A stretch of 64,000 nt of DNA, from NCBI GenBank assembly GCA_963732055.1, contig CAVSYG010000001.1, forward strand, positions 73,756-137,755, given 5' to 3'. The stretch is from an uncultured Bacteroidota bacterium (GTDB lineage Bacteria > Bacteroidota > Bacteroidia > Chitinophagales > Chitinophagaceae). Below the pieces are notes generated by a model. It made no database searches and was not told where the DNA came from. It saw nothing but the letters and a program-made list of their open reading frames with translations. The position numbers were made by a program, and so were the translations under genes. Positions 10,408 through 40,527 of the stretch are shown in pieces (the first letter of the stretch is position 1; the number at the start of each line of letters is the position of its first letter).

Positions 10408-11202
10408 ATGCACCCCGGCCATTTTGATTTAATACCAGCTTTTTACCTTGCGGTCCCTTTTTTATTTTTACTGATCCTGGTTAACTATCTGGGATATCGG
10501 TTTAAAGGATATCATATCAGAAAATTCCCGGGAATTGAACATGTAGGTATCGGACCTACAGAAGGATCCCTGCTTGGTTTAACGGCGCTTTTGCTTTCCT
10601 TTACTTTTGGTATGTCGGCCACAAAATATGAAACACGCCGGCAGCATATTGTTTCTGAAACCAATTATATAGGTACATCCATCTTACGGTGTGATTTGTA
10701 TCCCGACAGTGTGCGGAATCTTTTAAGATCCGACTTCAAAAATTACCTGGAAACAAGAATTGCCTATTACAACGTGGGAGACGACGAAGAGATGATTAAA
10801 AAAACGCTGGAGCAGTCAGATTCTATTTCAACCATTATCTGGAAACGGGTTGCAGTACTTTCGCATGATTTGAATAATCGTGTCGCCAGCGAACAAATGG
10901 TTCCTTCCCTAAATTCGATGATTGATATCACAACAACCCGGGAATCGGCGCGGAGATCTACAGTACCATCAATGATTTTAATTGTTTTGTGTACTTTAAT
11001 TATTGTGTCTGCCTTTCTTTCCGGTTATGGAAGCAAAAGCCTTGAAAGAAATAAAGTGCTGGTGCTTGCCTTTGCATTGGTAACTACTTTGGCTCTTTAT
11101 CTGGTTGTTGATTTGGACAAGCCCCGCCAGGGATTTGTAAATCTGGATGCTACTGAGCAGCTAATGGTCAATCTGAGAACCCTTTTCACAGAACACCCAT
11201 AG
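10408..11202 (+). CDS. Membrane protein, DUF4239-like
   Basis: Four hydrophobic segments with LGLTALLLSFTF..A..YETRR...E.N.IGT and LVVDLDKPRQG, matching my recollection of the DUF4239 pattern. Start at ATG 10408 is inferred. Confidence 0.6.
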   Translation: MHPGHFDLIPAFYLAVPFLFLLILVNYLGYRFKGYHIRKFPGIEHVGIGPTEGSLLGLTALLLSFTFGMSATKYETRRQHIVSETNYIGTSILRCDLYPDSVRNLLRSDFKNYLETRIAYYNVGDDEEMIKKTLEQSDSISTIIWKRVAVLSHDLNNRVASEQMVPSLNSMIDITTTRESARRSTVPSMILIVLCTLIIVSAFLSGYGSKSLERNKVLVLAFALVTTLALYLVVDLDKPRQGFVNLDATEQLMVNLRTLFTEHP

Positions 11203-18472: not shown

Positions 18473-21400
18473 ATGTTTAAGACCCTAACTCATAATTCCC
18501 GGTTTGAATTCAGGAATTATTTCCTATTACCCCTGCTTTTAGTTTTTGCATTCAATTTTGCCTACACTCAGAATGCAATTGTCACTGAAAATTTAAATGC
18601 TGGTGTTCCCGCATCCCAGTGGGATATTCCTTTAAATAGTAATGGCACATTTGGAGACAAAACCATACAGGGTTTCGGCACCGATATCAGTGTAAACGTT
18701 GGCGGTACTATCAATTTTAAGATAACGGTTACGTCAGGAACGGATAAGTCATTCGGAATTAAAATTTACCGTATTGGATATTATCAGGGAAACGGAGCCC
18801 GCCTGATAGCAGATCTTGGTACTGCTTTTACCGGAATCACACAAAATGCCTGTTCGTTTGACAATACAACCGGGCTCACAGATTGCGGTAACTGGACGAC
18901 CAGCGCAAGCTGGACTGTCCCGTCTACAGCTGTTTCGGGACTGTATGTTGCCAAATTAACCCGGTCAGCTGCCGGTGGTGGTGGTTCCAGTCATATTGCT
19001 TTTATTGTTCGAAATGACGCCAGTACTTCCCAACTCTTATTTAAGACATCCGATGCCACCTGGCAGGCTTATAATCCTTATGGTGGATACAGTCTGTATG
19101 TCGGTGCCGGTATGCCATTCAATCATGGCGATAAAGTGAGTTATAACCGGCCGTATCTGACAAGAGACGGCGGGGGAGGCGGAGGAGCATCCGAGGATTT
19201 CTTTATGAATGCGGAATATCCCATGATCCGTTTCCTTGAAAGAAACGGCTTTGATATCAGTTATACAACTGACGTAGACATGGCGCGTAGCACAACTAAC
19301 CCTGTCACAAACCATAAAGTTTTTCTTTCTGTCGGTCATGATGAATATTGGTCGAAGGAAGAAAGAAATACAGTTGAAGCGGCACGTACGGCAGGAAAAA
19401 ACATGGCTTTTTTTAGCGGAAATGAAGTTTACTGGAAAACCAGATGGGAAAATAGTGTGGATGGCACAAGTACTCCTTTTCGCACAATGGTTTGTTATAA
19501 GGAAGGCACACTACCTACACCCGGAGAAAATGCATGCGGCGGGAAATGTGATCCCAGCACTGAATGGACAGGATTGTGGCGTGACGGATGCAGCTTTCCG
19601 AATGATAATGCCTGCAAACCTGAAAACGCTCTCAGCGGAGAGATCAGCTGGGATGGGACCACAAGTGCCATCATGGTACCTGATACTTACAAAAACTTAA
19701 GATTTTGGCGGAATACCTCGGTAGCTACATTGGGAGCTGGCCAAACTGCTACTATGACTCCAGGAACTCTGGGTTACGAGTGGGATTGGGAACAATATCA
19801 GAGTAGTTATCCACCCGGTCGCATTACGATGTCAAACACATCTTTTGATGGACATGTCCATAAATTATCGTTTTATAAGTCCTCTGCGGGTGGATTTGTC
19901 TTTGGTGCCGGATCAGTACAATGGTCATGGGGTCTTGATGCCAATCATGACAGTAATGAACAGGGAGGTGGTGGTGCCGCTACTGTGGCCATGCAACAGG
20001 CAACGATCAATTTGTTTGCCGATATGGGTGTACAGCCAGCCAGTATTCAAACAGGTCTTACTGCTGCTACCGCAACTACCGATGTTACTCCCCCGGTAAC
20101 CAAATTTACTTCACCGGCCACTGGATCAACCTTTACTTCATTATCACCTATCAGTTTTTCAGGAACTGCCACTGATGTCGGTGGAGTCGTTGCCGGCGTC
20201 GAAATCTCATTTGATGGAGGTGCGACCTGGGCAGCTGCAACAGGAACAACCAGTTGGACTTATTCCTGGACTCCTATCGGGAATGGAACATTTACAGTGA
20301 TTGTTCGCGGCATTGATGATTCCGGTAATTACACTGCAACAGCGTCTTCTCCTTCCATCACCATTACAATGAACGCTACTGCTCAAAATTGCCCATGTAC
20401 AATTTTTGGAACGACTGTCCCGACTGTGACGGTGACAAATGATAATGCGGGCGGAATTGTGGTTGGTACGAAATTCCGTTCAGCATTGAACGGAACTGTT
20501 ACGGGTATCCGCTTTTACAAGGCTTCGGGTAATAGTGGCACCCATCAGGGCCTGTTGTATAGCAATACAGGAACATTATTAGCCCAGGCAACATTTACCG
20601 GCGAAACGGCCACAGGATGGCAACAGGTAAGTTTTAGTAATCCGGTTACTATAACTGCAGGTACAACTTATGTTGCTTCCTATTTCAGCAGCAGTGGCAA
20701 TTATAGTTCGACAAACAATTATTTTTCACAAGCAATCGTAAATAGTCCTTTGACAGGTCTGGCAGACGGTACAGACGGAACAAATGGTGTTTATATATAT
20801 GCCTCTGCACCAGCCTTTCCTATTAATTCCTATCAAAAAGGAAATTACTGGGTGGATGCTGTATTTACCAATACGAACACCATTACGGCGAACGCTGGAA
20901 CTAACCAAACGATCACTTTGCCTCTGTCAACCATAACGCTCAATGGCAGTGCTTCTACTGGCGCAATCACCAGCTATGCGTGGACTGTTGTTTCCGGACC
21001 CAACACACCAACTATCACAACTTCAACCGCAGTTACGACAACCGTGACCGGATTGATCCAGGGAACTTATGTGTTCCAACTTTCAGTAAATGGTGGAGCA
21101 AGCACAGCACAGGTTACCATACTTGTAAATCCTCTTCCTCCACCCATGGCAAATGCAGGTCCCAAACAAACCATTACTTTACCCACTTCAACTGTAACTC
21201 TCAATGGCAGTGGTTCAGCGGGCACAATTACCAGTTATTCATGGAGTTTAATTTCGGGTCCTAATACACCTACCATTGCAACCCCCACAACAGTAAAGAC
21301 GACTGTTACAGGTCTGATTCAGGGCACATATATTTTTCAGCTTGCTCTGAATGGAACAGTCAGTACAGCAAGAGATACTGTAATCGTAAATGCCGCTGCC

Positions 21401-24400
21401 GCACCTGTGGCGAATGCGGGAAGTAATCAGACGATCACGCTACCGGTTTCATCGGTTACACTCAATGGTAATGGATCAACGGGTACAATAACCAGTTATG
21501 GCTGGACGAATATCTCCGGACCTAATACACCGGTAATTACAACACCTTCCAATGTTTCAACAACCGTCACCGGATTGATCCAGGGCAGTTATGTATTTCA
21601 GCTTTCATTAAATGCAGGCGCCAGTGTTTCTCAAGTTACCGTAACTGTAAATGCAGTTTCAACCTCCACCACTATATTCACAACACAAACACCGGCGGGG
21701 CCTACCGAAAATGATGCTTTGGCACTTGAGCTCGGAGTGAAATTCCGGACAAATACGGCTGGTTCTATCACCGGCATTCGCTTCTACAAGACGACTGGGA
21801 ATTCAGGCACCCATATAGGAGAATTGTATTCTTCTACCGGCACCCGGTTGGCACAGGCAACATTTACAGGCGAAACGGCGACCGGATGGCAACAAGTGCT
21901 CTTTAGTTCGCCCGTGGCAATCACGGCAGGTACAACCTATGTCGCTGCTTATTTCAGCAGTTCCGGTAACTATACCAGCACATCAAACTATTTCACGACC
22001 GCAGTAGTGAATGGTCCGATTACTGCTTTGGCAGATGGAACAGATGGCTCCAACGGAGTATACAGATATTCTACAACGGCTGTTTTCCCTTCCAGCACAT
22101 ACCAAAAAAGTAATTACTGGGTGGATGCCATATTTTCTTCCGGGCCTGTTGCACCGGTTGCAAATGCGGGTGCTAATCAGACCATAACATTACCAACGTC
22201 TAGGTGTCACACTGAACGGCAGTGGCTCTACAGGCGCAATCAGCAGTTATTCATGGACGTTAGTATCCGGACCAAACGTGCCGGTAATTACTACGCCCAC
22301 TACCGTGTCGACAACAGTAACCGGATTAATACAGGGAACTTATGTGTTCAAATTATCTTTAAATGGTGCCGTAAGTACTTCTCAGGTTACCATTACTGTA
22401 AACGCTGCACAGACTGTCGTTGCAAATGCGGGGGCTAATCAGACGATCGTCTTGCCGGCGTCTTCTGTAACACTGAATGGCAGCGGTTCAACCGGTACCA
22501 TTAGCAGTTATTCATGGACGTTAGTATCCGGACCAAACGTGCCGGTAATTACTACGCCCACTGCCGTGTCGACAACCGTGACCGGATTGATCCAGGGAAC
22601 TTATGTGTTCCAACTTTCAGTAAATGGTGGAGCAAGCACAGCACAGGTTACCATACAGGTAAATCCTGCTCCGCCACCTGTTGCTAATGCGGGCCCCAAA
22701 CAGACTATTACGTTACCGACTTCAACGGTGACTCTTAACGGCAGTGGTTCTACCGGCACCATATCCAGTTATGCCTGGAGTTTTGTTTCGGGTCCCAATA
22801 CACCTACTATAACAACTCCTACAACTGTAAAGACAACTGTTACAGGTCTGATTCAGGGCACATATATTTTTCAGCTTGCTCTGAATGGAACAGTCAGTAC
22901 AGCAAGAGATACTGTAATCGTAAATCGCCGCTGCCGCACCTGTGGCGAATGCGGGAAGTAATCAGACGATCACGCTACCGGTTTCATCGGTTACACTCAA
23001 TGGTAATGGATCAACGGGTACAATAACCAGTTATGGCTGGACGAATATCTCCGGACCTAATACACCGGTAATTACAACACCTTCCAATGTTTCAACAACC
23101 GTCACCGGATTGATCCAGGGCAGTTATGTATTTCAGCTTTCATTAAATGCAGGCGCCAGTGTTTCTCAAGTTACCGTAACTGTAAATGCAGCTTCAACCT
23201 CCACCACTATATTCACAACACAAACACCGGCGGGGCCTACCGAAAACGATGGTTTGGCACTTGAGCTCGGAGTGAAATTCCGGACAAATACGGCTGGTTC
23301 TATCACCGGCATTCGCTTCTACAAGACGACCGGGAATTCAGGCACCCATATAGGAGAATTGTATTCTTCTACCGGCACCCGGTTGGCACAGGCAACATTT
23401 ACAGGCGAAACGGCGACAGGATGGCAACAAGTGCTCTTTAGTTCGCCCGTGGCAATCACGGCAGGTACAACCTATGTCGCTGCTTATTTCAGCAGTTCCG
23501 GTAACTATACCAGCACATCAAACTATTTCACGACCGCAGTAGTGAATGGTCCGATTACTGCTTTGGCAGATGGAACAGATGGCTCCAACGGAGTATACAA
23601 ATATTCTACAGCGGCTGCTTTTCCTTCCAGCACATACCAAAAAAGTAATTACTGGGTGGATGCCATATTCTCTTCCGGGCCTGTTGCACCGGTTGCAAAT
23701 GCGGGTGCTAATCAGACCATAACTTTACCAACTTCCACAGTTACACTGAACGGCAGTGGCTCTACAGGCACAATCAGCAGTTATTCATGGACGTTAGTAT
23801 CCGGACCAAACGTGCCGGTCATTACTACGCCCACTGCCGTGTCAACAACTGTAACCGGATTAATACAGGGAACTTATGTGTTCAAATTATCTTTAAATGG
23901 TGCCGTAAGTACTTCTCAGGTTACCATTACCGTAAACGCTGCACAGACTGTCGTTGCAAATGCGGGTGCTAATCAGACCATCGTCTTGCCTGCGTCTTCT
24001 GTAACACTGAATGGCAGCGGATCTACAGGTACTATTTCCAGTTATGCATGGACCAGGATTTCAGGTCCGGGCACACCCATAATTGCAACACCCAGTGGTG
24101 TAACAACTTTGGTAACCGGACTGGTACAGGGTACTTATGTATTTCAACTTTCACTAAATAGTGGCGCCAGTGTATCACAAGTAACCGTGAATGTGATTCC
24201 CGCTTCCACACCCGTAACTATTTTTACTACACAGACACCAACGGTAACCACGTCGAATGACGGGATCGGCATTGAAACAGGTGTAAAATTCCGCAGCAGT
24301 GTTGGCGGGACAATTACAGGCGTTCGCTTTTATAAAACATCCGGCAACACGGGTACTCATACAGGTGAACTATATTCATCAATTGGTGCAAGACTCGCCC

Positions 24401-27150
24401 AGGCGGTCTTTACAAATGAAACGGCCACAGGATGGCAGACGGTAATATTCAGTTCGCCTGTGCCAATTACTGCCGGTGTAACATATATCGCCGCTTGTTA
24501 CAGCAGTAGCGGAAACTACATAAGCACAGATAATTATTTTAATACAGCCGTTGTTAACGCACCATTGACCGCCCTGGCTGACGGAACCGACGGGCCAAAT
24601 GGTGTGTTTGTATATGGAAATGCTGCTGCGTACCCAGCGAATTCGGGTTCAAAGACTAATTATTGGGTAGATGCGATTTTTAACGGTTCGGTTAATACGG
24701 TCGATGTAACTCCTCCGGGAATAATAGTAACCAGTCCGGCAGCTGCTGCAACCAATGTATCCGCGAATTCATCTGTCAATGTATTCTTCAATGAAGAATT
24801 AAATCCGTCAACTGTGTCAGGTAATACTGTTTTCCTCCAGAATGGAACGACCAACATTGCATCCTCTGTGATCAATAATACTGAAGGAGGCGTGACGCTG
24901 ACACCTTCCGCACCGCTTAATCCCAACACTGTATATACGGTTACGGTAAAGGGCGGAACTGGTACAAATAAAATTACAGATGTCGCAGGAAACGCTTTGA
25001 CAAAAGATACGGTTTGGAGTTTCACTACAGCTCCCAAACCAACCGTGGCAATCCCTGCTAACGGACCCGGTGGTCCGATACTGCTGATTAGCTCCGCCTC
25101 AAATGCATTCAGCCGTTATCCAGTCGAAATACTGCGTGCCGAAGGTTGGAATGCTTTTAACGCATTGGATATTTCAGCTGTCACAACAACAGAAATAAAC
25201 AAATACGATGTGGTTGTTGTCGGAGATATTACTCTAACGGCCGCACAGGTAACCATGTTAACAAACTGGGTAAATGCAGGCGGAACGTTGATTGCATTTC
25301 ATCCGGATCCACAATTGTCTGCATTGCTGGGAATTTCTTCAGCCGGCGGAACAATGTCAGATAAATACCTGCTTGTAAATACGGCAACAGCGCCCGGACT
25401 CGGTATTGTGAACCAGACTATTCAATATCACGGCGTTGCCAATCTGTATAATGTAAATGCAGGTACCAATATTGTGGCTACTCTTTATTCAGATGCAACA
25501 ACGGCGACCATTTATCCGGCCGTGACCAGCAGGAATGTCGGAACACTCGGTGGACAGGCTATTGCGTTTGCATATGATCTGGCGAAATCGGTTGTATATA
25601 CAAGACAGGGCAATCCGGCTTGGGCAGGACAGAACCGCGACGGGCAGGATGCCGTTATTCGTGCGGATAATTTATTTTTTGGCAATGCATCTTTTGATCC
25701 GCAGCCGGATTGGGTAAACCTGAATAAGGTAGCCATACCGCAGGCAGATGAACAACAAAGATTATTCACGAATATTATAGTGGCTGGGAATTTCGATCGT
25801 AAACCATTACCGAGGTTCTGGTTCCTTCCGAAGGGGAAGAAAGCGGCTGTTGTGATGACGGGTGATGATCATGCGAACGGTGGAACCATGGGCAGATTTA
25901 ATAGATACCTGGCACTCAGTAGTTCAAATACACCCAGTGATGTGGCTAACTGGAATGCAATCCGGAGTACGTCATATATGTATCCGTTCTCTCCCATAAC
26001 TAATGCGCAGATCGCAATATATCAGAACCAGGGATTTGAACTTGCATTTCATCTGAATCCGAACTGCAGTGTATGGACACCTAGCCAACTTCAAAATTAT
26101 TTTAGTAGCCAGATGTCAGATTTCACAGACGAATATTATGTAGCGAATCCGCTGGCAACACATCGTATCCATTGTCTTTCATGGAGTGACTGGGCCACAT
26201 TGCCAAAAACAGAAGTTCAGCTTGGCATCCGTCTGAATGTGAGTTATTATTACTGGCCGCCTTCCTGGATTAATAACAGACCGGGTATGTTTACAGGATC
26301 TGGTATGCCTATGCGTTTTGCAGATACTGACGGTAGCCTGATTGACAACTACCAGGTGCCCAGTTATATGACTGATGAATCCGGTCAGACTTATCCCATG
26401 ACGATCGATTCACTGTTACTTCGTGCGACCGGGGCACAGGGGTATTATGGCGTTTTCTGCGCAAATATGCACACAGATGATTCTGCTTCTGCCGGTTCGG
26501 AAGCAATCATTGCTTCGGCACAGGCATTGCAAATTCCCGTGGTGTCTTCCAAACAAATGCTCGATTGGCTGGATGCAAGAAATAATTCTACATTCTCAAA
26601 TTATACCTGGTCAAACGGCACATTGGGCTTTACAGTAACACAGGATCCTAAGGCGCTGAATTTAAAAGGCATGTTACCGCAAACTATTTCCGCGGGTAGT
26701 TTTATTTCACTTACTCAAAACGGATTAGCTGTTAATACCACGATTGAAACCATTAAGGGAATTAGTTATGTTTTCTTTGATGCAAGCAACGGTAATTATG
26801 TCGCGACATATGCAGTAACCGCTCCTGGTGCCGGCAGTAATCCTGCTTTGGCTCAAATTGCACCGGCCTCAGAGTCTGATTCAACAAACTTCACGAATTA
26901 CCTGGGTCAGAATTATCCTAATCCATTTAGTCTGAATACAAGAATCAATTATAGTATTGCTGCAAGTAATGTCGTTGAATTGATTTTATACGACATGCAG
27001 GGAAGGCCGGAAAAAGTTATGGTAAATGAAGTAAAAAAAGCAGGTAACTATGTTTACGATTTGAATACGGGTAACCTGGCGAAGGGAGTTTATTTCTACA
27101 GAATCCGTTCCGGAAGTTTTATCGATGTAAAAAAACTGATTATTCAATAA
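18473..27150 (+). CDS. Giant T9SS-secreted multidomain protein (~2,891 aa after removing two +1 insertions): DMFase-beta-like domain, Ig-like domain, 4x DUF4082, 9x PKD-like repeats, SbsA/Big_5-like Ig, shared ~585-aa module, CTD
   Basis: Track ORFs 18473..22438, 22278..22961 and 22942..27150 join into one frame. The insertions at ~22203 (extra G) and 22926 (extra C) are shown by the internal duplicate copy. Motifs TWQAYN, VGHDEYWS, GxKF..TGIRFYK..NYWVD, ANAGxNQTITLP, and CTD LGQNYPNPF..LAKGVYFYRI. Confidence 0.85.
21037..24025 (+). repeat. Intragenic tandem duplication, unit ~1,533 bp (511 aa: PKD repeats plus one DUF4082)
   Basis: ACCGTGACCG at 21041 recurs at 22575, ACTGTTACAGGTCTG at 21302 recurs at 22836, and CCGGATTAATACAGGG at 22321 recurs at 23855 (offset 1534 each, including one spurious inserted base). 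Confidence 0.92.
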
Positions 27151-27174
27151 CACTAGGTATAACGCGTTAGAACC

Positions 27175-27235
27175 ATGTCATATTTTGGGAGTTTCTGTCA
27201 AAAGATATTGACAGAAATTCCCAGAATATGTACAT
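27175..27235 (+). terminator. Long intergenic stem-loop (terminator or mRNA-stability hairpin)
   Basis: 23-bp stem 27179-27201/27208-27230 with a 6-nt loop AAGATA. The only two non-Watson-Crick pairs are G-U on the plus strand. Confidence 0.65.
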
Positions 27236-27542
27236 TCTTTCCACAATTCTTACTTATTTGAAGGTGAACTAATTGATATACAGTCTGTTACGACTTATAT
27301 CAAAGACTTTGTTATCGATTTATAATAATTGCCTATTTACTATACTTTACCAGATATTGTTTTTATTTTGCGGCATCCAATCCTGTCTATTTACTGAATA
27401 AGACACTGAGATATTATTACATAAATGTCCACGGCTGTCTTATTAACTTTCCAAATCCGCCTGTTTCCATCCAGATCCTTTTTCAAAATCAAATTCGTTT
27501 TCGAAGAAAGCAACATTCATAATAGACAGTAATTCGTGCGCT

Positions 27543-30500
27543 ATGTATCAGAAAACTTTACCCTATGTCAGGGGAATAAAATATTTTATTATTTTATTCC
27601 TTGCATTTTTTTCCTTCCATTCCTCCTTTTCCCAAAATCCGATTGTTACTGAGAATGCACAGATAGGGACACCTGCTTCAACTTGGGATATTCCAACAAA
27701 AGATGCTGGTGATTCTTCTATCCAGGGATTTGCGACGGATATTAGTGTAAATGTTGGTGGTACGATAAACTTTAAAATTGATGTCAATACGGGAACTGAT
27801 AAGACTTTTAATATTTCAATTTATCGAATAGGTTATTATCAGGGGAACGGCGCGCGTCTGATTGCTGATTTAGGACCGGGCTTTACTTTTAACGGTATCG
27901 CCCAGGGTGGTTGTAACTATGATGGTGCAACGGGTCTTACTGATTGTGGAAACTGGACTACCACGGCTTCATGGAATGTTCCTGCAGGCGCTGTATCTGG
28001 ACTATATATCGCTAAACTTACAAGGTCGGCAGCAGGCGGTGGAGGGACCAGTCATATCCCATTTGTCGTACGAAATGATGCTCCAACAAATACCTCTGCA
28101 CTTTTCTTTAAGACTTCGGATGCTACCTGGCAGGCTTATAATAATTATGGAGGCAACAGTTTATATGTCGGAGCTGGCTTACCGAATAACCATGCATCAA
28201 AAGTCAGTTACAATCGTCCCTTTCTTACCCGCTCAGGTGGTGGGGGCGGTGCCGCAAGGGAAGACTGGTTTATGAATGCCGAGTATCCAATGATCCGTTT
28301 TCTGGAGTCAAACGGATTTGACGTCAGTTACACTACGGATATGGACCTTGTTCGCAATAATGTAAATAATATTAATCTTTTATTGAATCATAAAATATTT
28401 CTGTCAAACGGCCATGATGAATATTGGTCCAAGGAAGAAAGGAATACCGTTGAAGCAGCAAAAGCGGCTGGAAAAAATCTGGCTTTCTTCAGCGGAAACG
28501 AAATATATTGGAAAACAAGATGGGAAAACAGTATTGATGGTACAAGTACTCCTTTTCGTACCATGGTATGTTATAAAGAAGGTGCACTGCCAACAGCCCA
28601 GGAAAATGCCTGTGGAGATAAATGTGATGTTTCAACAAACGAATGGACAGGCTTATGGCGAGACGGATGTAATTATACCGGTGTGACGGACGCATGTAAA
28701 CCTGAAAACGCATTATCCGGGCAGATCAGCTGGGACGGAATTCCGGGCACAATAACAGTTCCTGATACTTATAAAAATTTAAGATTCTGGCGTAATACAG
28801 CTGTAGCCACGCTGGGAACCGGGGTAACGCAAACACTCACCAATGGAACATTGGGATACGAGTGGGATTGGTTTCAATATAGCAGTACGTATCCGCCGGG
28901 AAGGGTTAGGATGTCAAGCACTACATTAGACGGCCGGATACATAATTTATCCTTATACAAAGATGTAACCAGTAAAGCCCTGGTATTCGGTGCAGGGACG
29001 GTACAATGGGCCTGGGGACTAGATGCCAATCACGATATCAATGAGCTAAGTAATGGTGGTGCTGCCGATCGAAATATGCAGCAGGCTACGATCAATCTGT
29101 TTGCAGATATGGGCGTTCAGCCGGCTACAATTCAAAGTCCGCTTACCATTGCTACGCAATCAACAGATATTACACCGCCTGTTACAACAATTACATCACC
29201 GGCCAATGGTACGCAGATACCGGAAAGCGCAACTTTCAATATTACGGGAACTGCCACAGATGTGGGTGGTGTAGTTGCAGGCGTCGAAGTATCCGTAGAT
29301 GGCGGCCTCACCTGGCAACCCGCTACCGGTACGACGAACTGGAGTTTTTCCTGGCTGCCAACTGCGCAGGGGACTGTAACGATAAAAAGTCGTGCTTTTG
29401 ATGATATCGGAAACCTGGAATCTCCCGGTGGAAGTGAAGGTTCGGCTAATACCGTAACAGTATCAGTAGTTTCAGGTACACCGCCAACAAACTGCCCTTG
29501 CTCTATATTATACACAACCGTCACAAAGCCCGACCAACAATAATGATCTGAATCAACATGATCGGACCGGGTGGCATCACAGTCGGCGTAAAATTTAAAG
29601 CTGATTTTGATGGTAAAATTACACGGAATCAGATTTTTTAAAGCGCCTCTTGATAACGCGACGACAGATGAACACGTGACATTATATGCATATAAGTCCG
29701 GATGGTGGAGTCAGCCCTGGAACGGCGATAGCTACTGCCAGTCTGCCATCAAATTTTACGCATGATCAGGTAAACGGAGAGTGGGCAGAGGTTTTATTTG
29801 CAACGCCTTTTCAGATTACGGCAAATACTGTTTATGTAGCTACTTATTATAGCCCTACCGGATATTACAATGCTACCGATAATTCTTTTACAAATCCGGT
29901 TGTAAATGGTCCGCTGGCTATATTGAAGGATGGTGACGAGGGCGTTAATGGTGCATATATTTACGATGACGCATACCCGACTAATGGATTTCAGGCATCC
30001 AACTATTGGGTCGATGTAGATTATTCAAACGGCGCTGATATTACACCACCAACGGTTATTTTTAATAATCCTGCATCAGGTGCGACGAATATCAACATCA
30101 ATAGTTCAATTTCAGCTACATTCAGCGAGAATATAAACCCGTCTACGGTAACCGGAGCTACTTTTGTATTAAAAGATGGTTCGGGAAATATAATACCTGG
30201 AACCGTCAGCTATTCTGTTGGCACAAGGTCAGCGACTATACTTTTGTCATCTCCCCTCGATTATTCCACACAATACTTTGCTACGGTTACTGGTGGAGCT
30301 TCAGGAATAAAAGATCTGGCGACCCCTACCGCCAATGCCATGGTATCTGATTTTATATGGAGCTTTACAACAGTTCCCGTTCCGGCAATTCCGCCCGATG
30401 ATGGATCGGGTGGACCCATATTGATTGTTAGCAGTAACCTGAACCCGTATAGTCGGTACCTTGTAGAAATACTTAGGGCACAGGGATATACCGCTTTCAA

Positions 30501-32724
30501 AGCAGTAGATATTTCGGAAGTGGAATCAAACCCGGCGATGCTGAATGATTATGATATTATTTTGTTGGGCCAGATGACACTTAATTCAACAGATGTTGGA
30601 CTTTTTTCCTCGTGGACCAATGCAGGAGGCACGCTCATAGCGCAACGTCCCAGTACATTGCTTTATCCTTTGATGGGTATCACATCCAGCGGTACGAGAG
30701 TAGATAATATTACTAATACCTACCTGTTGGTAAATACCGCAACAGGGTTGCCGGGGACTGGTATTGTGAGCCAAACTATCCAATATCATGGTGATGCTGA
30801 TCTTTACAACATGAACGCGGGGACAACCAGCCTGGCGACGCTTTACTCTTCGGCTACTACAGCAACTGTTAATCCGGCAATTACAAGTAAGAATTGTGGT
30901 GCAGGTAAAGCAATCGCCTATGCATTTGACCTTGCAAAGTCCATCATACTGACAAGACAGGGAAATATGGCATGGGCAGGTTCCAGTAGAGACGGGCAGA
31001 CGGGACCAACCAGATCCGATAATTTATTTTTCCCGAATTGGGTTGATTTTAATAAAATACAAATTCCGCAGGCAGATGAACAACAACATTTGCTAACTAA
31101 TATCATTCTGCTCGATAATCTGAATAAGAAACCTTTACCACACCTATGGATTTTGCCGAGCGGATTAAAAGCGGCTGTGATAATGACCGGAGATGATCAT
31201 AACAATGGAAGTTATCCCGGAAGTTCCGGAACAGCCGGCCGGTTTAATGAATACAGAGATATGAGTACTGATAATTCTCCCGGGGCTGTTGATGACTGGA
31301 AAGCAATCAGGGGCACCTCCTATGTTTTTAACGACATATCGATGTCGATCGATTCGGTAGCTTATTATCAATCTCTGGGATTTGAAATTGCATTGCATCC
31401 GAATACCAATTGTATAAATTTTACTCCGGCATCTTTAACAAGTACCATATCCACCCAACTATCACAGCTTGAGGCACAATTGCCCACTTTGATGTCTCCG
31501 GTTACCAACAGGACCCATTGCATGCCATGGAGTGACTGGGCGTCTCAACCAAAGATTGAAAATTCGTTCGGTATCCGGTTTGATGTAAATTATTATTACT
31601 GGCCTAGCACCTGGGTTCAAAACAGGCCCGGACTGTTTACAGGTTCCGGTATGCCGATGCGTTTTGCGGATAATGACGGAACGCTGATTGATTGTTTTCA
31701 GGCCCCGACCCAAATACCAGATGAATCCGGATTGGATATCACAAATAGCATCAATACATTGCTGGATAACGCCATTAACAAGGGATATTATGGGGCATTT
31801 GTTATGAACATGCACACGGATACTGCCATACATGTAGGTTCAGATCAAATCATCGCTTCAGCGAAGGCAAGAAATATTCCCATTATCAGTGCTAGGCAAA
31901 TGCTGACCTGGCTGGATAGCCGGAATGGTACAAAGTTTAGTAATATCGCCTGGGATAATGTTGCCAAAAAGTTGAGCTTTGATCTGACAACAACTGCACA
32001 CAATCTGCAGGCCATGGTGCCTTTCAACTCTGCTGATGGCACACTGTTGCAGGTGACCGGAGGTGGAACGCCTGTTACGGTTACCACACAAACTGTAAAA
32101 GGAATTGCCTACGGATTTTTTCCTGCCAGCTCACAAAGTTATGTGGCTACATATTCAAGTACTCCATTGCCCATCACACTACTGAATTTTACAGTTACCA
32201 AACAGGGTGATAATGCACAACTGAACTGGTCAACTTCATCGGAAGAAAATAATAAGGGTTTTGAAATACAGCGTAGCACAGATCAATCCAACTGGACTGT
32301 ATTGAATTTTATCGCTGGTGCTGGAAACAGTCAGACTGAAAAGGATTATCAATATCTTGATCAGAATCTGCCCGCTGGAACTTATTATTATCGTCTGCGA
32401 CAGGTTGATTATGATGGTAATTCATCTTTCAGCAAAGTTGTACCGGTGACTTTTGATGGAGGTATGGCGTTGGAGTTGAAACAGAATCATCCGAATCCGT
32501 TCAGTAATTATACTTCGATTTCTATGGTCATTCCAAAAGCCGGTCGTGTGCAACTGATGTTATATGACCAGATGGGCAGACCCATACAGCAATTAATGGA
32601 TGAGGAAAAAATGCCCGGAACGTATACCGTAACGGTGAATAAGAACGGATTGAGTTCTGGCATTTATTATTATAAAATGAATGCGCTCGGACAAGTGATC
32701 GTAAAGAAAATGACAATTTTGTAA
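27543..32724 (+). CDS. Second T9SS-secreted paralog (~1,725 aa after removing four +1 insertions): DMFase-beta-like domain, Ig, DUF4082, Big_5-like Ig, shared module, LPITL-type Ig-like domain, CTD
   Basis: ORFs 27543..29543 and 29686..32724 are bridged by DUF4082 fragments (GGITVGVKF, GIRFFKA) in successive frames at 29530-29690. N-terminal domain is closely similar to paralog 1. CTD LKQNHPNPF..LSSGIYYYKM. Confidence 0.85.
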
Positions 32725-32740
32725 ATACAAATTTTAAAAT

Positions 32741-32776
32741 AAAAGCCGCTGATTATCCAGCGGCTTTTTTTTGTTT
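32741..32776 (+). terminator. Intrinsic terminator after paralog 2
   Basis: AAAAGCCGCTG-ATTATC-CAGCGGCTTTT followed by a long T-run. Confidence 0.9.
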
Positions 32777-32923
32777 AATGGCTCATTTCTTTTTTACTTA
32801 TCCACACTTTTTGGATTCTCACCTTGAAAACCCTGAATAAATATCTCAGGTATTTTGCATATGAATTGGCGAAGTTCACTAATATTGGATCTCGTATGAG
32901 CAGCATGGAACGAGAAAAAAATA

Positions 32924-34834
32924 ATGGGGAGACTTCTGAAAATAATATCAACGGTTTTTATTCTGATTCTTTTACCGCTTTCTTCCAGAGTTTTTAATTT
33001 ATTCTTAAGATTTTCCGCCCAGAATTTTCCAACCACTCCGATATATGATGGACCCGGAGGACCTATATTGATTGTCAGCAGTGCTGTGAATCCTTTCGGC
33101 CGTTACCAGGTAGAAATATTAAGAGCACAGGGATATACATCTTTCAAGGCTGTAGATATTACCGAAGTGGAGGCAAACCCTGCGATACTGAATAGTTACG
33201 ATGTTATTTTATTAGGACAGATGAAATTAAATGCGTCAGATGTTTCTCTTCTGATTACATGGACTAACAAAGGCGGCACACTCATAGCTCAACGACCCTG
33301 TTCATTACTTTATCCATTAATGGGTATAACATCAAGGGACTCTGTAGCGGATAATTATAAAAAAACTTACCTGTTAGTAGATACCACAATTGAGCAACCG
33401 GGAGCTGGAATTGTAAGCCAGACGATCCAGTATCATGGTGTAGCTGATCTGTACGATTTGCTGCCCGGAACCACGAGTCTCGCAACATTATATTCTTCAG
33501 CGACGACACCCACTCGCAATCCAGCAATAACAAGTGCCAGCGTTGGTAACAAAGGAGGTAAAGCGATCGCTTTTGCATTCGATCTTGCGAAATCCATTGT
33601 GCTTACAAGACAGGGAAATATGGCTTGGACGGGGCAGAGCAGAGACGGGCAAACAGGTCCTATCAGATCGGACGATTTATTCTTCCCAGACTATGTCGAC
33701 TTCGACAAAATACAAATTCCACAGGCCGACGAACTTCAGTATCTGTTTACGAATATCATCCTGCTGGATAATCTGCATCGAAAGCCCCTGCCGCATTTAT
33801 GGATACTGCCCAGGGGATTAAAGGCAGCGATCGTGATGACTGGAGATGATCATAATATAGAAATGAAATCGGGATTTACTGGTACGCCGAGCCGCTTCAA
33901 TGATTACAGGTTAATGAGCATGGACAATTCTCCACAAGCCGTGGAAGATTGGAAAGCGATCAGGGCTACTTCTTATGTTTATGACAATATAATCTTGTCC
34001 AATGATTCAGTACATCATTATCAGTCTTTGGGATTTGAAATCGCGTTTCATCCTACTACCGATTGCAAAGATTTTACACGTACGTCGCTTTCAAATGATA
34101 TGACCAGGCAATTGTCAAAGCTTGAGACAAAATTACCCGGTATGTTACCACCGGTTACAAACAGAACACATTGTATGCCCTGGAGTGACTGGGCGTCACA
34201 ACCGAAAATTGAAAGCTCTTTGGGGATCCGTTTTGATGTAAATTATTATTATTGGCCGAGTACCTGGGTTCAGAACCGGCCCGGGCTGTTTACGGGCTCA
34301 GGTATGCCCATGCGTTTTGCAGATAGTAATGGAACAATGATTGATTGTTATCAGGCGCCTACACAAATTCCGGATGAATCCGGGCTTGATATTACAAACA
34401 GCATCAATACACTGCTGGATAATGCGATTAATAAAGGTTACTACGGAGCTTTTGTAATGAATATGCACACGGATACTGCCATGCATATCGGATCGGACCA
34501 GATCATCACTGCTGCGATGACCAGACAGATACCTGTTATTTCTTCCAAACAAATGTTAACCTGGCTCGATAACCGTAACGGGACTGTATTCAGCGGTGTA
34601 GCCTGGGATAATATCGCAAAAACACTGAGTTTTACTGTCAATACAATTGCGCATAACCTTCAGGTTATGGTTCCTCTGCATTCTATGGACGGGGAACTGA
34701 TTCAGGTAATTGAAAATGGAAAGCCTGTCCCATTTACAATTCAAACGATTAAGGGAATACAGTATGGGTTTTTCGCCGCAAGCACGCACAATTACAATTA
34801 TATCGCTGTTTATTCAAAAAAAGCCGCTGAGTAA
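32924..34834 (+). CDS. Third paralog: N-terminal signal/anchor plus the shared ~585-aa module only (no DMFase-like domain, no CTD)
   Basis: GPGGPILIVSS, VMTGDDH, GFEIAFHP, RTHCMPWSDW, YYYWP and NMHTD align with the modules at 25063-26815 and 30403-32160. Confidence 0.88.
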   Translation: MGRLLKIISTVFILILLPLSSRVFNLFLRFSAQNFPTTPIYDGPGGPILIVSSAVNPFGRYQVEILRAQGYTSFKAVDITEVEANPAILNSYDVILLGQMKLNASDVSLLITWTNKGGTLIAQRPCSLLYPLMGITSRDSVADNYKKTYLLVDTTIEQPGAGIVSQTIQYHGVADLYDLLPGTTSLATLYSSATTPTRNPAITSASVGNKGGKAIAFAFDLAKSIVLTRQGNMAWTGQSRDGQTGPIRSDDLFFPDYVDFDKIQIPQADELQYLFTNIILLDNLHRKPLPHLWILPRGLKAAIVMTGDDHNIEMKSGFTGTPSRFNDYRLMSMDNSPQAVEDWKAIRATSYVYDNIILSNDSVHHYQSLGFEIAFHPTTDCKDFTRTSLSNDMTRQLSKLETKLPGMLPPVTNRTHCMPWSDWASQPKIESSLGIRFDVNYYYWPSTWVQNRPGLFTGSGMPMRFADSNGTMIDCYQAPTQIPDESGLDITNSINTLLDNAINKGYYGAFVMNMHTDTAMHIGSDQIITAAMTRQIPVISSKQMLTWLDNRNGTVFSGVAWDNIAKTLSFTVNTIAHNLQVMVPLHSMDGELIQVIENGKPVPFTIQTIKGIQYGFFAASTHNYNYIAVYSKKAAE

Positions 34835-36418: not shown

Positions 36419-37297
36419 TTAACTCACTATTTTTAATGAAGCCTGGTCAAATTGATTGATCAGTGAAGCCGTTTCATAAATATTACTTTTTGATGATGCA
36501 CCAAAAAGGATTGATTCAATATTGGGCAGACTGCACACATATTCTATCGCTTCCCGGGCTGAAACAGCACCACCAGCCAGAACCTGCATAGCAATGGCCC
36601 GGAATCGTCCGGTGCTGAGTATATGTTCATACTTCTCCCTGCCCCCCGACATCCTGAATCCTGCTTTATTAATAGATGAACAGATTATGGGGTTCTTAAT
36701 GCCGGCTCCTTCCAGCACATCCAATAGCATGGGCATATTCATTGTTATATAGCCTGCTTCAGCATTATACTTCTTTGCTACATATTTGTGATATGATACC
36801 AGCACATCTGTCATTCTCAACCCAAGCAAAAGATCAGTAATTACGTTTTGGAGGAAAATAACAGGGGTTTGTATGCCTTTAAACATTTTCATTTCGGCGT
36901 CAATCAGCAATTCCATTATGGCCATATAGTCTTTCGATAAAAAAGCAACCCCACCTTTAAAAAGTGAACCGACAAAATTCCCGGGAACATATTGTTTGAG
37001 TGTTCCGGCGATACCCAGTTCGGTAACCGCATTCGCATATTTATGCGCATACGGCATACAAGGGAAAATTTTGAAATTTCTGTATTTATCCGGATCGTCC
37101 CGGATGATCTGGCAGATATTTGCTATCCGGTCATGCGTTGTACACATGAAAGTTTTTATGCCCGCTTCCATTGCATAATCAAGTGTCCTGACAATCGCGC
37201 TGTCTTCCTTAAAGCGCATCGACTGGGCCATAGATTTGTCATCAGAAATATGATTTACCGCGAAAAACTGGTTATCACCAAATAATATTCTGTCCAT
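36419..37297 (-). CDS. Conserved hypothetical protein, possibly aldo/keto-reductase-like barrel
   Basis: Intact 292-aa ORF in operon. Segments AMEAGIKTF, IAMQVLAGG, EAIEYV and ILFGAS resemble AKR-fold segments (inference). Confidence 0.55.
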   Translation of the reverse strand: MDRILFGDNQFFAVNHISDDKSMAQSMRFKEDSAIVRTLDYAMEAGIKTFMCTTHDRIANICQIIRDDPDKYRNFKIFPCMPYAHKYANAVTELGIAGTLKQYVPGNFVGSLFKGGVAFLSKDYMAIMELLIDAEMKMFKGIQTPVIFLQNVITDLLLGLRMTDVLVSYHKYVAKKYNAEAGYITMNMPMLLDVLEGAGIKNPIICSSINKAGFRMSGGREKYEHILSTGRFRAIAMQVLAGGAVSAREAIEYVCSLPNIESILFGASSKSNIYETASLINQFDQASLKIVS

Positions 37298-38390: not shown

Positions 38391-39518
38391 TCATTTCAAT
38401 AATGAAGTAAAAGTGTCTATGACTTTTTGAATATCTTCTTCTTTCATTGGAATATACAGAGGCAGAATGATACTTCTGTCACTGGCTTTTTCCGACACTG
38501 GTAATTGCAGATTGGCATATTCCTTATTATACGCTGTTTCCCGATGTGTTGTCATAATTCCCCTTCGTGTTGAAATACCGGCATCCAGCATTTTCTGCAT
38601 GATGTCATTTCTGCTGACCGGAGAGTCATCCTGCAGGTAAATACTGTAGGACTGATAGTTACTAAAATATCCCTTTTTTTCTATTGGTAACTGAAGATAT
38701 TTGAGACCCTTAAAGGCTTTATGATACCGAAGTGCTATTTTTCTTCTTTTTGCTATGATCCAGTCCAGTTTTTCAAGTTGCTGGATTCCGACAGATGCCT
38801 GTATGTCAGTTAGCCGATAATTGTAGCCTACTTCCAGATGATCTTCGAATATAATTTTGGAAGATTCATGTCTGGTTCGGTCATTTACCGACATGCCATG
38901 CTGCCTGAGGAGCTTCATGCGGTTATAATATGACTCATTATTTGTAGTGATCATTCCGCCGTCACCGGTTGAAATAACTTTTCTTGGGTGAAAGGAAAAG
39001 CAAACCAGATCTGAATGACTTCCGATTTTAGCTCCCTTATATGCGGAACCGGCAGCGCATGCGGCGTCTTCAATTAATTTCAGCTGGTATTTTTTTGCAA
39101 GCTCCTTAAAAGCATCTATATCGGCGGGCATTCCAATCTGGTGAACCAGCAGTATGGCTTTTGTCTTATCCGTAATTTTTCTTTCTGTATCCTGCACGTC
39201 GAGGTTATAATTTGTGGGATTTATTTCCGCAAATACGGGTTTTGCACCCACGTATTTGATAGTGTTGGCGGTAGCAATATAACTCATAGAAGGACAAATT
39301 ACTTCATCGTCAGGACCAATGCCTGATACAATCATCGCGAGATGAAGGGCCGTTGTGCAATTTGAAACGGCAACGGCATATTTCGCTCCGGTATAAGCAG
39401 CGAATTTCTGTTCAAATTCGGCAACCCGCGGTCCCTGCGTTATCCATCCGGTCAATATGGTATCGTATGCAGCTTTTGCTTCTTTTTTTGTCAGGTAGGG
39501 TTTGGCTATCGGAATCAT
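38391..39518 (-). CDS. DegT/DnrJ/EryC1/StrS PLP-dependent sugar aminotransferase
   Basis: MIPIAKP, SNCTTALH, IEDAACA, FSFHPRK (PLP lysine) and GYNYRLTD. ATG 39518 overlaps the upstream stop codon. Confidence 0.93.
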   Translation of the reverse strand: MIPIAKPYLTKKEAKAAYDTILTGWITQGPRVAEFEQKFAAYTGAKYAVAVSNCTTALHLAMIVSGIGPDDEVICPSMSYIATANTIKYVGAKPVFAEINPTNYNLDVQDTERKITDKTKAILLVHQIGMPADIDAFKELAKKYQLKLIEDAACAAGSAYKGAKIGSHSDLVCFSFHPRKVISTGDGGMITTNNESYYNRMKLLRQHGMSVNDRTRHESSKIIFEDHLEVGYNYRLTDIQASVGIQQLEKLDWIIAKRRKIALRYHKAFKGLKYLQLPIEKKGYFSNYQSYSIYLQDDSPVSRNDIMQKMLDAGISTRRGIMTTHRETAYNKEYANLQLPVSEKASDRSIILPLYIPMKEEDIQKVIDTFTSLLK

Positions 39519-40495
39519 TCGTTTACAGTTATTTTGTTTTTTTCGAAATACCACTCACTTAATTCTTTCATTCCCTTTTCAAGTGAAATGGTGGGGGTAA
39601 ACTTAAGCAAATCTTTGGCCTTACTGATATCTGCCAGTCTGCGGCTAACCGGGTTTACAGAATTTTCAGCTCTGTATTCAGGTGCAAGATTTGAATTGTT
39701 TACTTTTAACAACACCGCTAGCAATTCTTTGAGGCTTGTTTCCTCACAATTTCCAATATTGAAAGCTTCATCAGTCACATCAGCCTGTAACGCAGCAATA
39801 TTGGATTTGGCTATATCTTTTACATATACAAAATCCATTGTCGTAGATCCATCCCCATAAATAAGCGGATTTTTTTCGTCCCGGATGCAATCAAGCCATT
39901 TAATCATGACTTCAGTATACTTGCCGTCCGTATCCATACGGGGACCGTATGCATTGAAGTATCGAAGAGCCACATAATCCAGTCCGTACATGAATTTAAA
40001 ACTACGGAATAGTTGTTCTCCCCACATTTTGGCAGCGCCGTAAAAAGTTTGATTATTATAGGGATTGTCTGTTTCCGGGGTAGGGAAGTGCTGAGCCAGT
40101 CCATAAACAGATGCGCTTGAACTGTAGATTACTTTTTTCACCTTATGCTTTACGCATAACGAAGCGATTTCAAAAGTTGATTTTAGCATAACTTCAAATC
40201 CCTCCCGGGGATTGGCGGCGCATGAATTGATGCGCAGTGCAGCCATATGGAAAACATAGTCTGTACCTGTAATACATTTCTCAAGCAGGTCCAGGTCCCT
40301 CATATCCCCATTATGAAATTCAACAAGCGTATTATTTATGAAGTTTTTCATATTTGGATAACCACCCCTAATCAGGTTATCTATAATTATAATTTTCTTT
40401 GGTTTTAAAGGGATCAATTCTTCAATGACATAAGAACCGATAAAACCGGCACCCCCGGTAACCAGGATAACACTGTCTTTTACTTTATTGTTCAT
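39515..40495 (-). CDS. NAD-dependent nucleotide-sugar epimerase/dehydratase
   Basis: LVTGGAGFIGS, FHMAA, YSSSASVYG, YGAAK (YxxxK), LRYFNAYGP and DFVYVKD. Confidence 0.92.
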   Translation of the reverse strand: MNNKVKDSVILVTGGAGFIGSYVIEELIPLKPKKIIIIDNLIRGGYPNMKNFINNTLVEFHNGDMRDLDLLEKCITGTDYVFHMAALRINSCAANPREGFEVMLKSTFEIASLCVKHKVKKVIYSSSASVYGLAQHFPTPETDNPYNNQTFYGAAKMWGEQLFRSFKFMYGLDYVALRYFNAYGPRMDTDGKYTEVMIKWLDCIRDEKNPLIYGDGSTTMDFVYVKDIAKSNIAALQADVTDEAFNIGNCEETSLKELLAVLLKVNNSNLAPEYRAENSVNPVSRRLADISKAKDLLKFTPTISLEKGMKELSEWYFEKNKITVNE

Positions 40496-40527
40496 GACGT
40501 TCTTTATTTAACGGCTTTAAGTTTTAT

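Follow-up and report, generated by a model that had tools for sequence, protein, structure and literature searches.

The window analysed here is the whole of a 64,000-nucleotide stretch of DNA from an uncultured soil Bacteroidota bacterium of the family Chitinophagaceae (assembly GCA_963732055.1, contig CAVSYG010000001.1, positions 73,756 to 137,755 of the forward strand). Near its middle it carries three copies of a protein module of about 585 residues, two of them set within very large genes, called host genes A and B below, and the third forming a gene of its own, next to a cluster of genes for exopolysaccharide (EPS) synthesis (Table 1). The three stretches are free of stop codons in translation and align from end to end, with an identity of 54% between copies 1 and 2, 53% between copies 1 and 3 and 74% between copies 2 and 3, and a genome-wide search found exactly these three in the full 4.76-Mb assembly. 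The first-pass annotation, which had been made from the letters alone, proposed this triplication, and it stands, apart from the end of copy 3, which had been placed at 34815 and lies at 34831, close to the stop codon of its open reading frame (ORF). The motifs that it listed are likewise present in all copies where they had been located: besides those collected in the table, YYYWP, FTGSGMPMRFAD, NMHTD, EILRAxG and GGTLIA were found in each of the three, while the site written YDVIxxG is an approximation of what reads YDVVVVG in copy 1, YDIILLG in copy 2 and YDVILLG in copy 3. A total of 104 positions are conserved at 95% or more in 250 relatives from outside this genome, and copies 1, 2 and 3 retain 102, 102 and 103 of them, which is far beyond chance and does not fit a decayed repeat. 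All three copies look functional at the level of the module, as far as this pattern of conservation can tell.

The sequence libraries have little to say about this object. With HMMER, copy 3 matches no family of Pfam-A at E<=10, nor does the module region of copy 1 or of copy 2 match any, NCBIfam yields no match to the module, and the chain sequences of the Protein Data Bank (PDB) yield no meaningful match with E up to 10, whether they are queried with single sequences or with a 40-sequence profile. The family of polysaccharide deacetylases that corresponds to carbohydrate esterase (CE) family 4 in Pfam, Polysacc_deac_1 (PF01522), is no exception, with no match to the module at E<=10 while genuine CE4 genes of the same genome score 63-112 bits. 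The sole signal given by a library is a sub-threshold match of the N-terminal domain to DUF4350; in paralogues and in a sister family this domain weakly matches DUF4350, ThuA and GH42M of Pfam.

The module is nevertheless widespread. Relatives form more than 2,000 clusters in a collection clustered at 90% identity, and after clustering at 50% identity there are 2,807 representatives with E<=1e-3, of which 1,078 reach E<=1e-30; at least 581 module loci were counted in species-representative genomes. They belong to Bacteroidota, Acidobacteriota, Chloroflexota, Actinomycetes and Eisenbacteria, the carriers, chiefly organisms of soil and rhizosphere, including Chitinophagaceae, Dyadobacter, Hymenobacter, Pontibacter, Adhaeribacter, Gillisia, Algoriphagus, Segetibacter, Thermoanaerobaculia and Vicinamibacterales, and their identity with copy 3 remains near 50% from group to group, and between phyla. 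Among the representatives listed, matches nearly always cover the whole module (approximately query residues 30-630). To judge by these alignments, the module is passed on whole: it may follow nothing but a signal peptide, a common form in the family, or be embedded in a protein that can reach 5,513 residues. A sister subfamily of more than 1,000 members, likewise unannotated, comprises stand-alone proteins of about 617 residues that are 30-33% identical to the module, have LTNDGED where the module has MTGDDH, and are devoid of a pair of Cys residues discussed below. Examples are found at positions 614-2167 of locus L020 (genome G017) and 9001-10845 of locus L129 (Danxiaibacter flavus, CP128386.1), the latter gene being part of a SusC/SusD locus that also contains an AraC regulator, a short-chain dehydrogenase/reductase (SDR), an MR/MLE dehydratase and further unannotated proteins.

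Table 1. Coordinates of the features discussed, counted from the first nucleotide of the window; residue numbers, here and throughout, are those of module copy 3
Feature	Position	Strand	Content or basis
Host gene A	18473-27150	+	Three frames: 18473-22438, 22278-22961, 22942-27150. Signal peptide, DMFA2_C-like domain (~18758-19948), Big_7, DUF4082/PKD repeats, Big_5, module copy 1, type IX secretion (T9SS) C-terminal domain (26914-27147)
Host gene B	27543-32724	+	Pieces 27543-29543 and 29686-32724. Signal peptide, DMFA2_C-like domain (~27813-29030), Big_7, DUF4082, Big_5, module copy 2, extra beta domain, T9SS C-terminal domain (32491-32721)
Module copy 1	25063-26815	+	Within ORF 22942-27150 (1,402 residues)
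Module copy 2	30403-32160	+	Within ORF 29686-32724 (1,012 residues)
Module copy 3	33050-34831	+	Almost all of stand-alone gene 32924-34834 (636 residues)
MTGDDH	25855-25872; 31183-31200; 33836-33853	+	Copies 1; 2; 3
GFE(L/I)A(F/L)H	26032-26052; 31378-31398; 34031-34051	+	Copies 1 (GFELAFH); 2 (GFEIALH); 3
R(I/T)HC..WSDW	26164-26193; 31510-31539; 34163-34192	+	Copies 1; 2; 3
RIHC; RTHC	26164-26175; 31510-31521	+	Copy 1; copy 2
NMHTD	26464-26478; 31807-31821	+	Copies 1; 2
Alpha/beta domain, ThuA/class-I glutamine amidotransferase type, parallel sheet	33050-33619	+	Residues 1-190; DSSP order, Foldseek
Conserved loop (NxAWxGQxRDG...R.DDLFF), then long IPQADEQQ helix	33620-33814	+	Residues 191-255; AlphaFold2 model
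NodB-like seven-stranded beta/alpha barrel	33815-34585	+	Residues 256-512; AlphaFold2, Foldseek, conservation, CE4 profile alignment
C-terminal beta-sandwich, eight strands	34586-34819	+	Residues 513-590; AlphaFold2 (pLDDT ~90-95)
Wzx/Wzy-type EPS cluster	34889-60538	-	Convergent with the module genes

Predicted fold and conserved residues

The AlphaFold2 model of the module, built from a 40-sequence alignment, is confident (pLDDT 90.1, pTM 0.92) and is made of an alpha/beta domain, a barrel and a beta-sandwich. The first of these has no Cys-His-Glu triad, and the idea that it might be an active glutamine amidotransferase was rejected because it has no conserved Cys. The loop that follows (residues 191-220) is modelled less well, with pLDDT of 61-79, yet R198, D199, R206, D227 and E228, in the loop and the helix after it, are conserved at 97-100%, and the whole of residues 191-255 is possibly a lid or a linker over the active site. 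Modelled alone, the barrel has a pLDDT of 80, and its seven strand-helix units are present in both models.

When the whole module was compared with the PDB by means of Foldseek, human NDST1 came first (9f6z_B, E=1.6e-11; 8ccy, E=9.5e-9), the match involving both its N-terminal and its N-deacetylase domains, followed by the GATase-like, or trimerisation, domain of GH42 enzymes, by class-I glutamine amidotransferases and by CE4 deacetylases. With the barrel alone, 16 of the top 17 matches are of CE4 type (15 unambiguous CE4 enzymes and 4dwe, a 'putative polysaccharide deacetylase'), each with probability 1.00, with E from 4e-7 to 1e-4 and a TM-score to the target of 0.35-0.67 (0.53-0.67 where the target is a single domain of about 200-220 residues); among them are PdaC (6h8l, E=3.8e-7), Bc1974, BA0150, 2vyo (TM to target 0.67) and 4dwe (TM to query 0.51). 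Agd3 (6nwz_A) is found at E=0.015, and PelA (9CGY) lies outside the top 50, for the whole module as well as for the barrel. A Foldseek search of such a model was among the checks that the first-pass annotation had advised, and its proposal of an alpha/beta domain followed by a deacetylase barrel and a beta-rich tail, in the manner of PelA and Agd3, is borne out by the three-domain model together with published domain orders: a GATase1/ThuA-like carbohydrate-binding module (CBM87), CE18 and a beta-rich domain in Agd3 (PMC7229062), a ThuA/PhzE/IFT52-like alpha/beta domain, CE21 and a beta-rich domain in PelA (PMC12022489), and a Rossmann-like N-terminal domain followed by a deacetylase in NDST1 (PMC10864358). 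We hold this fold and this architecture, as predicted, with high confidence.

Conservation was followed in an alignment of 253 members of the family. D266, H268, H334, R372, H374, Y399 and Y400 are conserved at 100%, H473 at 99.6%, D442, E443, N471 and D475 at about 99%, and C339 and C375 at 98%, and the 104 positions conserved at 95% or more include four His, several Asp or Glu and an Arg at the ends of strands. Indeed, polar invariant residues come one after the other at the C-terminal ends of successive barrel strands (D266/D267/H268, H334, R372/H374, Y399/Y400, D442/E443, H473/D475), which is the signature of the active site of a barrel. Both subfamilies have in common D266, E330, H334, H374, D396, Y399, D442 and H473, of which D266, H334, H374, D442 and H473 are invariant in the sister too, and the sister subfamily differs by a Gly in place of D267, a Glu in place of H268, an Ala in place of C339 and a Trp in place of C375.

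The two Cys residues deserve a comment, as the first-pass annotation had remarked on a conserved Cys close to the second CE4 motif. C339 is indeed conserved, and it varies together with C375, the Cys of RxHC: both are present in 247 of the 253 members, four of the six exceptions lose both, and both are lost in the sister subfamily. Such co-variation in an exported protein points to a disulfide between two loops that bear His residues; the pair is probably that, to judge from the alignment, and not a metal ligand, a role that was discarded for this very reason. The additional His residues noted at the same time fared unequally, as the His of RxH (H374) is invariant in both subfamilies whereas that of DDH (H268) is replaced by Glu in the second. 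The machinery of CE4 enzymes consists of an Asp-His-His metal site and an acid His. The conserved core of the module, one Asp and three His, would have the same composition, with one His coming from the next strand.

Resemblance to deacetylases and the question of activity

The link with CE4 can also be followed, with less ease, at the level of sequence. Profile-profile comparisons were run between the barrel of the module and genuine CE4 domains from this and related genomes; the first gave a probability of 9% (P=0.0036), and after addition of the sister subfamily to the query the values were 62% (P=7.4e-5) and 17.6% (P=0.0014), in a consistent register. Of the four runs, three agree in aligning KAAIVMTGDDH with xxLTFDDGP and GFEIAFH with GHEIGNH, and one run also sets R372 on the Arg of motif 3 and NMH on LLH. 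The mapping that results places D266/D267 at motif 1, H334 at the first His of motif 2, R372 at motif 3 and H473 at motif 5, the local sequences being RxHC and NMH at the sites of motifs 3 and 5 where CE4 enzymes have RxPY and LxH. CE4/NodB enzymes (PF01522; PdaC, PgdA, Bc1974) are the best structural match of the barrel, with a weak similarity of profile, in consistent register, that extends over motif 1, the first His of motif 2, the Arg of motif 3 and the His of motif 5. The module differs from them in that HxxxH is reduced to a single His, the metal Asp is not invariant, RxPY has become RxHC, the barrel is larger by about 60 residues, and both flanking domains are always present.

Three enzymes share more than the barrel. 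NDST1 (8CCY, 9F6Z) is the best structural match of the whole module, with a Rossmann-like N-terminal domain and a (beta/alpha)7 deacetylase, and the spacing of the motifs is close, 68 and 206 residues for D266/D267-H334-H473 as compared with 70 and 209 for D319/D320-H389-H529 (PMC10864358). It has, in contrast, the full His-His-Asp triad (H389, H393, D320) where the module lacks the second His, it is fused to a sulfotransferase and anchored in the Golgi membrane, it has no comparable C-terminal beta-sandwich, and identity is about 10%, with no match of the module to the Pfam HSNSD profile. Agd3 of Aspergillus fumigatus, the galactosaminogalactan de-N-acetylase (CBM87 and CE18, 6NWZ), has the same order of three domains, as shown by the AlphaFold2 order and by the match of the N-terminal domain to GH42M and GATase folds, the first domain being without triad in both; both proteins are secreted, and in both the first barrel strand is followed by Asp-Asp, with an Arg and, late in the sequence, a catalytic His. 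Homologues of Agd3 in bacteria are frequently located in EPS loci (PMC7229062). The resemblance does not extend to the sequence, as no PDB sequence matches the module, nor to the CM1-CM4 set, since the HxxxH of CM2 is absent from the module; about 68 residues separate the first two motifs, as against more than 120 in Agd3, the 64-residue insertion of Agd3 is absent, and the module has in addition the invariant RxHC, YYYWP and FTGSGMPMRF. PelA of Pseudomonas (GH166, alpha/beta, CE21 and beta-rich domains, 9CGY) again has the alpha/beta, deacetylase and beta-rich order; it modifies an exopolysaccharide outside the cytoplasm and is a NodB-like enzyme with an altered set of motifs that founded a new CE family (PMC12022489). 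The motifs of the module are not those of CE21: where PelA has H-x-D-x-D as motif 1, D-x-D and HxxxH (D530, H600, H604), and H526 instead of the Arg of motif 3, the module has T-G-D-D-H, a single His in motif 2 and an invariant R372, and it has no GH166 domain.

Taken together, these resemblances make us lean towards the view that the module is a secreted, probably metal-dependent polysaccharide de-N-acylase, of the architectural type of Agd3, PelA and NDST1. A hydrolytic activity of deacylase type appears somewhat more probable than not. We may then picture its action as follows. The ThuA/GATase1-like N-terminal domain would most likely lengthen a groove that binds the polysaccharide, as CBM87 does in Agd3, the chemistry would take place in the NodB-like (beta/alpha)7 barrel, and the C-terminal beta-sandwich would provide support or binding. 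An N-acyl group (acetyl or formyl), possibly also an O-acyl group, would be hydrolysed off a sugar of an extracellular polysaccharide by acid/base catalysis of CE4 type, with D266, answering to the first Asp of the motif TFDD, as the base, H473, answering to the His of motif 5, as the acid, D442 tuning H473, and R372 standing for the Arg of motif 3. The metal site would have been re-wired: H334 and H374, the latter a His of RxH located on the neighbouring strand and replacing the missing second His, would be its ligands, completed by D266, D267 or H268, while the C339-C375 disulfide would staple the two loops that carry these His residues.

A number of observations weigh against this interpretation. 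The second His of motif 2, the absence of which the first-pass annotation had pointed out in the three copies, is missing from the entire family, as 251 of the 253 members have no His within the eight residues that follow H334 (its position is filled by N, G or D), and D267, at the canonical position of the metal Asp, is conserved at 86%, with N, E, Q, G or A in the other members and a Gly in the sister subfamily. The structural likeness is remote (9-14% identity, TM to query 0.41-0.51, root-mean-square deviation 4-9 Å), HMMER connects the module with none of the families of Pfam or the PDB when E is allowed up to 10, and the remaining one of the four profile runs, against an 18-sequence CE4 alignment, was not significant (probability 1.6%) and had a shifted register, so that we treat the sequence-level link to CE4 as weak. 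The distribution of the module is patchy, since of 37 congeneric genomes searched, counting the window's own, ten have it, and of 24 other families of the order none does; both large host genes are frameshifted in this genome; and there is no universal neighbour gene, about three quarters of the loci being without EPS genes. Finally, in PuuE the loss of the second His goes together with a metal-independent chemistry that is not that of a deacetylase (PMC10967932).

This last case leads to an alternative, in which the NodB-like barrel is catalytic and performs another chemistry, for instance a metal-independent hydrolysis of an amide or of a ring like that of PuuE, or else the hydrolysis of glycosides or a lyase reaction, on the pattern of the related seven-stranded barrels of the GH38 or GH57 type, in the scavenging of foreign polymers. 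The PuuE-type allantoinase (3CL6) is a NodB barrel that has lost the second His of motif 2 just like the module (PMC10967932), D267 is dispensable, and the invariant blocks YYYWP, FTGSGMPMRF, TRQGN and IPQADEQQ, which have no counterpart in CE4, suggest a distinct substrate or mechanism; the SusC/SusD utilisation locus of the sister subfamily, the T9SS cargo proteins with lectin, Ig and GH16 domains typical of foraging enzymes, and the patchy distribution in the genus would agree with scavenging. PuuE, however, is without both Asp of motif 1, it is cytoplasmic and it acts on a small molecule, whereas the module is exported, is fused to domains of the glycan-binding type and retains the Asp pair of motif 1, the Arg of motif 3 and the His of motif 5. 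Moreover, deacetylases and not GH38 or GH57 enzymes come at the top of the Foldseek results, and in a survey of the neighbours of 80 module loci from named genomes a SusC-like gene was found near one of them, while EPS genes, counted within 6 kb, were found near some 15-21. We consider this alternative unlikely. Regular membership of polysaccharide-utilisation loci was rejected, as a SusC-like gene is near one locus of the 80.

A second alternative would have the module be no enzyme at all, but a unit binding polysaccharides or acting as an adhesin, akin to the CE4 pseudo-enzymes BA3943 and EcCDA. It would suit a module that sits within giant, repeat-rich T9SS surface proteins (Ig, PKD, DUF4082) with an incomplete canonical metal triad, and the top single CE4 structure by TM-score, 2vyo, is itself probably inactive, with BA3943 also among the matches. 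The 104 positions conserved at 95% or more across phyla suit a catalytic pocket better than a binding surface, and the identity of about 50% held between phyla, as well as the frequency of stand-alone forms with nothing but a signal peptide, also speak against this second alternative, which is very improbable in our eyes.

De-N-acetylation turns neutral exopolysaccharides into the cationic, adhesive polymers of biofilms, as in poly-N-acetylglucosamine (PNAG), Pel and galactosaminogalactan, and the recognition of CE18 in 2020 and of CE21 in 2025 each opened a class of matrix biology. A survey of May 2026 lists CE families only up to CE21 (PMC13450560); a 'CE22' that appears in the literature is an artefact of 'CE2_2', and a paper on mined heparosan N-deacetylases deals with enzymes of the CE4, CE18 and NDST types only. 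The set of motifs (TGD[D]H, a motif 2 with a single His, RxHC, YYYWP, FTGSGMPMRF, NMHTD) and the fusion to a domain resembling dimethylformamidase (DMFase), described below, are in neither Pfam nor NCBIfam, and none was found in the searchable literature. The fold, the order of domains and the general mechanism are already known; the family, its motif set and the frequent DMFase-like fusion appear to be new at the level of sequence. With no match in Pfam, NCBIfam or PDB sequences and a list of CE families that ends at CE21, a new CE family is plausible, and the module is a credible candidate for it, as judged against Pfam, NCBIfam, the PDB, the literature and CAZy as known through the published survey. 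Proteins that carry the module are at present annotated as 'hypothetical' or named after their Ig-like neighbours only, so that its recognition would bring an annotation to thousands of proteins and a concrete candidate family to CAZy, besides providing a natural experiment in the rebuilding of the NodB metal site. Carriers in culture include Gillisia limnaea DSM 15749, Segetibacter koreensis DSM 18137 and strains of Dyadobacter and Pontibacter.

Host proteins, neighbouring genes and candidate substrates

Export is indicated by Por_Secre_tail domains on the proteins of copies 1 and 2 and by signal-like N-termini. In its ORF, copy 1 is preceded by two DUF4082, three PKD and one Big_5 domains, and copy 2 by a truncated DUF4082 and a Big_5 domain, each copy being followed by a T9SS sorting domain (Pfam); the gene of copy 3 has a hydrophobic, signal-like N-terminus, no T9SS tail and no recognised domain. 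Copies 1 and 2 would be displayed or secreted by the type IX system within giant proteins that bear, at their N-terminus, an amidase domain resembling DMFase and N-acetyl-amino-acid acylase, and copy 3 would be a stand-alone form exported by the Sec pathway. Among 34 representatives of the family, the domains fused to the module are Big_5 in 23, DUF4082 in 22 and the FN3-like Pur_ac_phosph_N in 14, with occasional ConA-like lectin and GH16 domains.

The amidase domain is DMFA2_C-like; it occurs in 40 of 145 representatives, and in 35 of these it lies on the N-terminal side of the module. DMFase binds its iron through Tyr/Tyr/Glu ligands. The two domains of this type in the window are nearer to N-acetyl-(R)-beta-phenylalanine acylase (8huy, E=1.8e-11) than to dimethylformamidase (6lvb, E=4e-4), and acylase and dimethylformamidase are both amide hydrolases, the catalytic domain of which has a ThuA-like fold (PMC7686228). 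We may venture, as a tentative proposal short of probable, that the module represents a new CE or amidase family apart from CE4, CE18 and CE21, with a metal held by D266, H334 and H374 from three strands rather than by an Asp and HxxxH, and that, in about a quarter of the carriers, it would edit EPS jointly with the DMFase/acylase-like domain of the same polypeptide, the two amidases removing N-formyl or N-acetyl groups from amino-sugar polymers outside the cell.

The EPS cluster of the window makes such a substrate conceivable. It comprises an initiating sugar transferase, two DegT aminotransferases, SDR and GFO enzymes, glycosyltransferases of families GT2 and GT4, two hexapeptide acyltransferases, an ArnA-like N-formyltransferase, Wzy, Wzx, Wzc and Wza, and from this content the product of the locus probably contains N-acylated, possibly N-formylated, amino sugars. 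The formyltransferase assignment (E=6e-38) is below the cut-off of its family, and the gene stands beside that of an ArnC/PgfS-like GT2. These two belong to an Arn-like block (38391-43440, minus strand) made of a DegT aminotransferase, an SDR, the ArnC/PgfS-like polyprenyl-phosphate GT2, the ArnA-like N-formyltransferase and then an unannotated ORF of 344 residues, with no recognisable deformylase of the ArnD type; by its gene content, the block hints that an N-formylated amino sugar is borne by a lipid carrier. Three ORFs of the cluster, on the minus strand, have no match in Pfam or NCBIfam (36419-37297, 292 residues; 42406-43440, 344 residues; 46085-47923, 612 residues).

The adjacency of the module to EPS genes is kept in the congeneric genome G025. 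Among the 80 loci surveyed, the EPS neighbours occur in Chitinophagaceae, Hymenobacter, Pontibacter, Gillisia and Christiangramia, with Wza and Wzc near the module of Gillisia limnaea, and the genes most often met code for an SDR epimerase (13 loci), GT2 (8), GT4 (7), a hexapeptide transferase (7) and an initiating transferase (6). The search for a universal conserved neighbour was given up, as there is none across these loci. In this genus, the likely substrate of the de-N-acylase would be the product of the adjacent EPS locus, with N-acetylated or N-formylated amino sugars, although the assignment of the neighbouring EPS as substrate is doubtful. A true de-N-acylase could as well act on something else, chitin or chitosan, peptidoglycan, the walls of fungi or algae, or the glycans of T9SS cargo or of the A-LPS type, and be located next to EPS genes by coincidence. 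As many as 59-65 of the 80 loci are without EPS neighbours, distant homologues occur in unrelated contexts, GH16 and lectin-like domains are among the fusions, and carriers live mainly in soil and rhizosphere; against coincidence, at least five genera, from three families, have EPS genes beside the module, and no other functional class comes near this frequency. Such another substrate is a possibility to which we give a tentative place, short of probable.

The frames of the two host genes need a separate word. The reading frame of gene A shifts twice by +1, near 22203 and near 22926, and that of gene B changes at least three times between 29540 and 29690, so that the ORFs 18473-22438 and 27543-29543 represent the 5' portions of the two genes, separated from the rest by these changes. 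Uninterrupted orthologues exist in two congeneric genomes, with 2,459 and 2,479 residues for gene A and 1,707 residues for gene B (genome G010), and in them the layout is continuous: signal peptide, DMFA2_C, Big_7, a variable number of DUF4082/PKD units, Big_5, module and T9SS tail. Gene A of the window contains a direct repeat of 1.1 kb, about 97% identical (21392-22519 and 22927-24053), that corresponds to one PKD, DUF4082, PKD unit and has ends that coincide with the two frameshifts, which suggests a recent tandem duplication or an artefact of assembly in the repeat. No public read run contains the frameshifted sequence, the best one holding 14% of the sampled words, and the frameshifts of genes A and B are either a real pseudogenisation or an error of assembly.

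Two more regions flank the subject of this work. Beyond the EPS cluster, and divergent from it, the ORF at 61222-63999, which runs past the end of the window, codes for a very large secreted protein with DUF4832, four PKD and four Big_9 domains. Upstream of gene A, the segment 14164-17705 codes for a protein resembling DUF1080/3-keto-disaccharide hydrolase, a protein of the metallo-beta-lactamase fold and a small outer-membrane protein of the Omp85 family; in genomes G010 and G018 gene A is preceded by ORFs that are comparable to these in length, strand and order, and the genes of this segment may share a functional unit with gene A.

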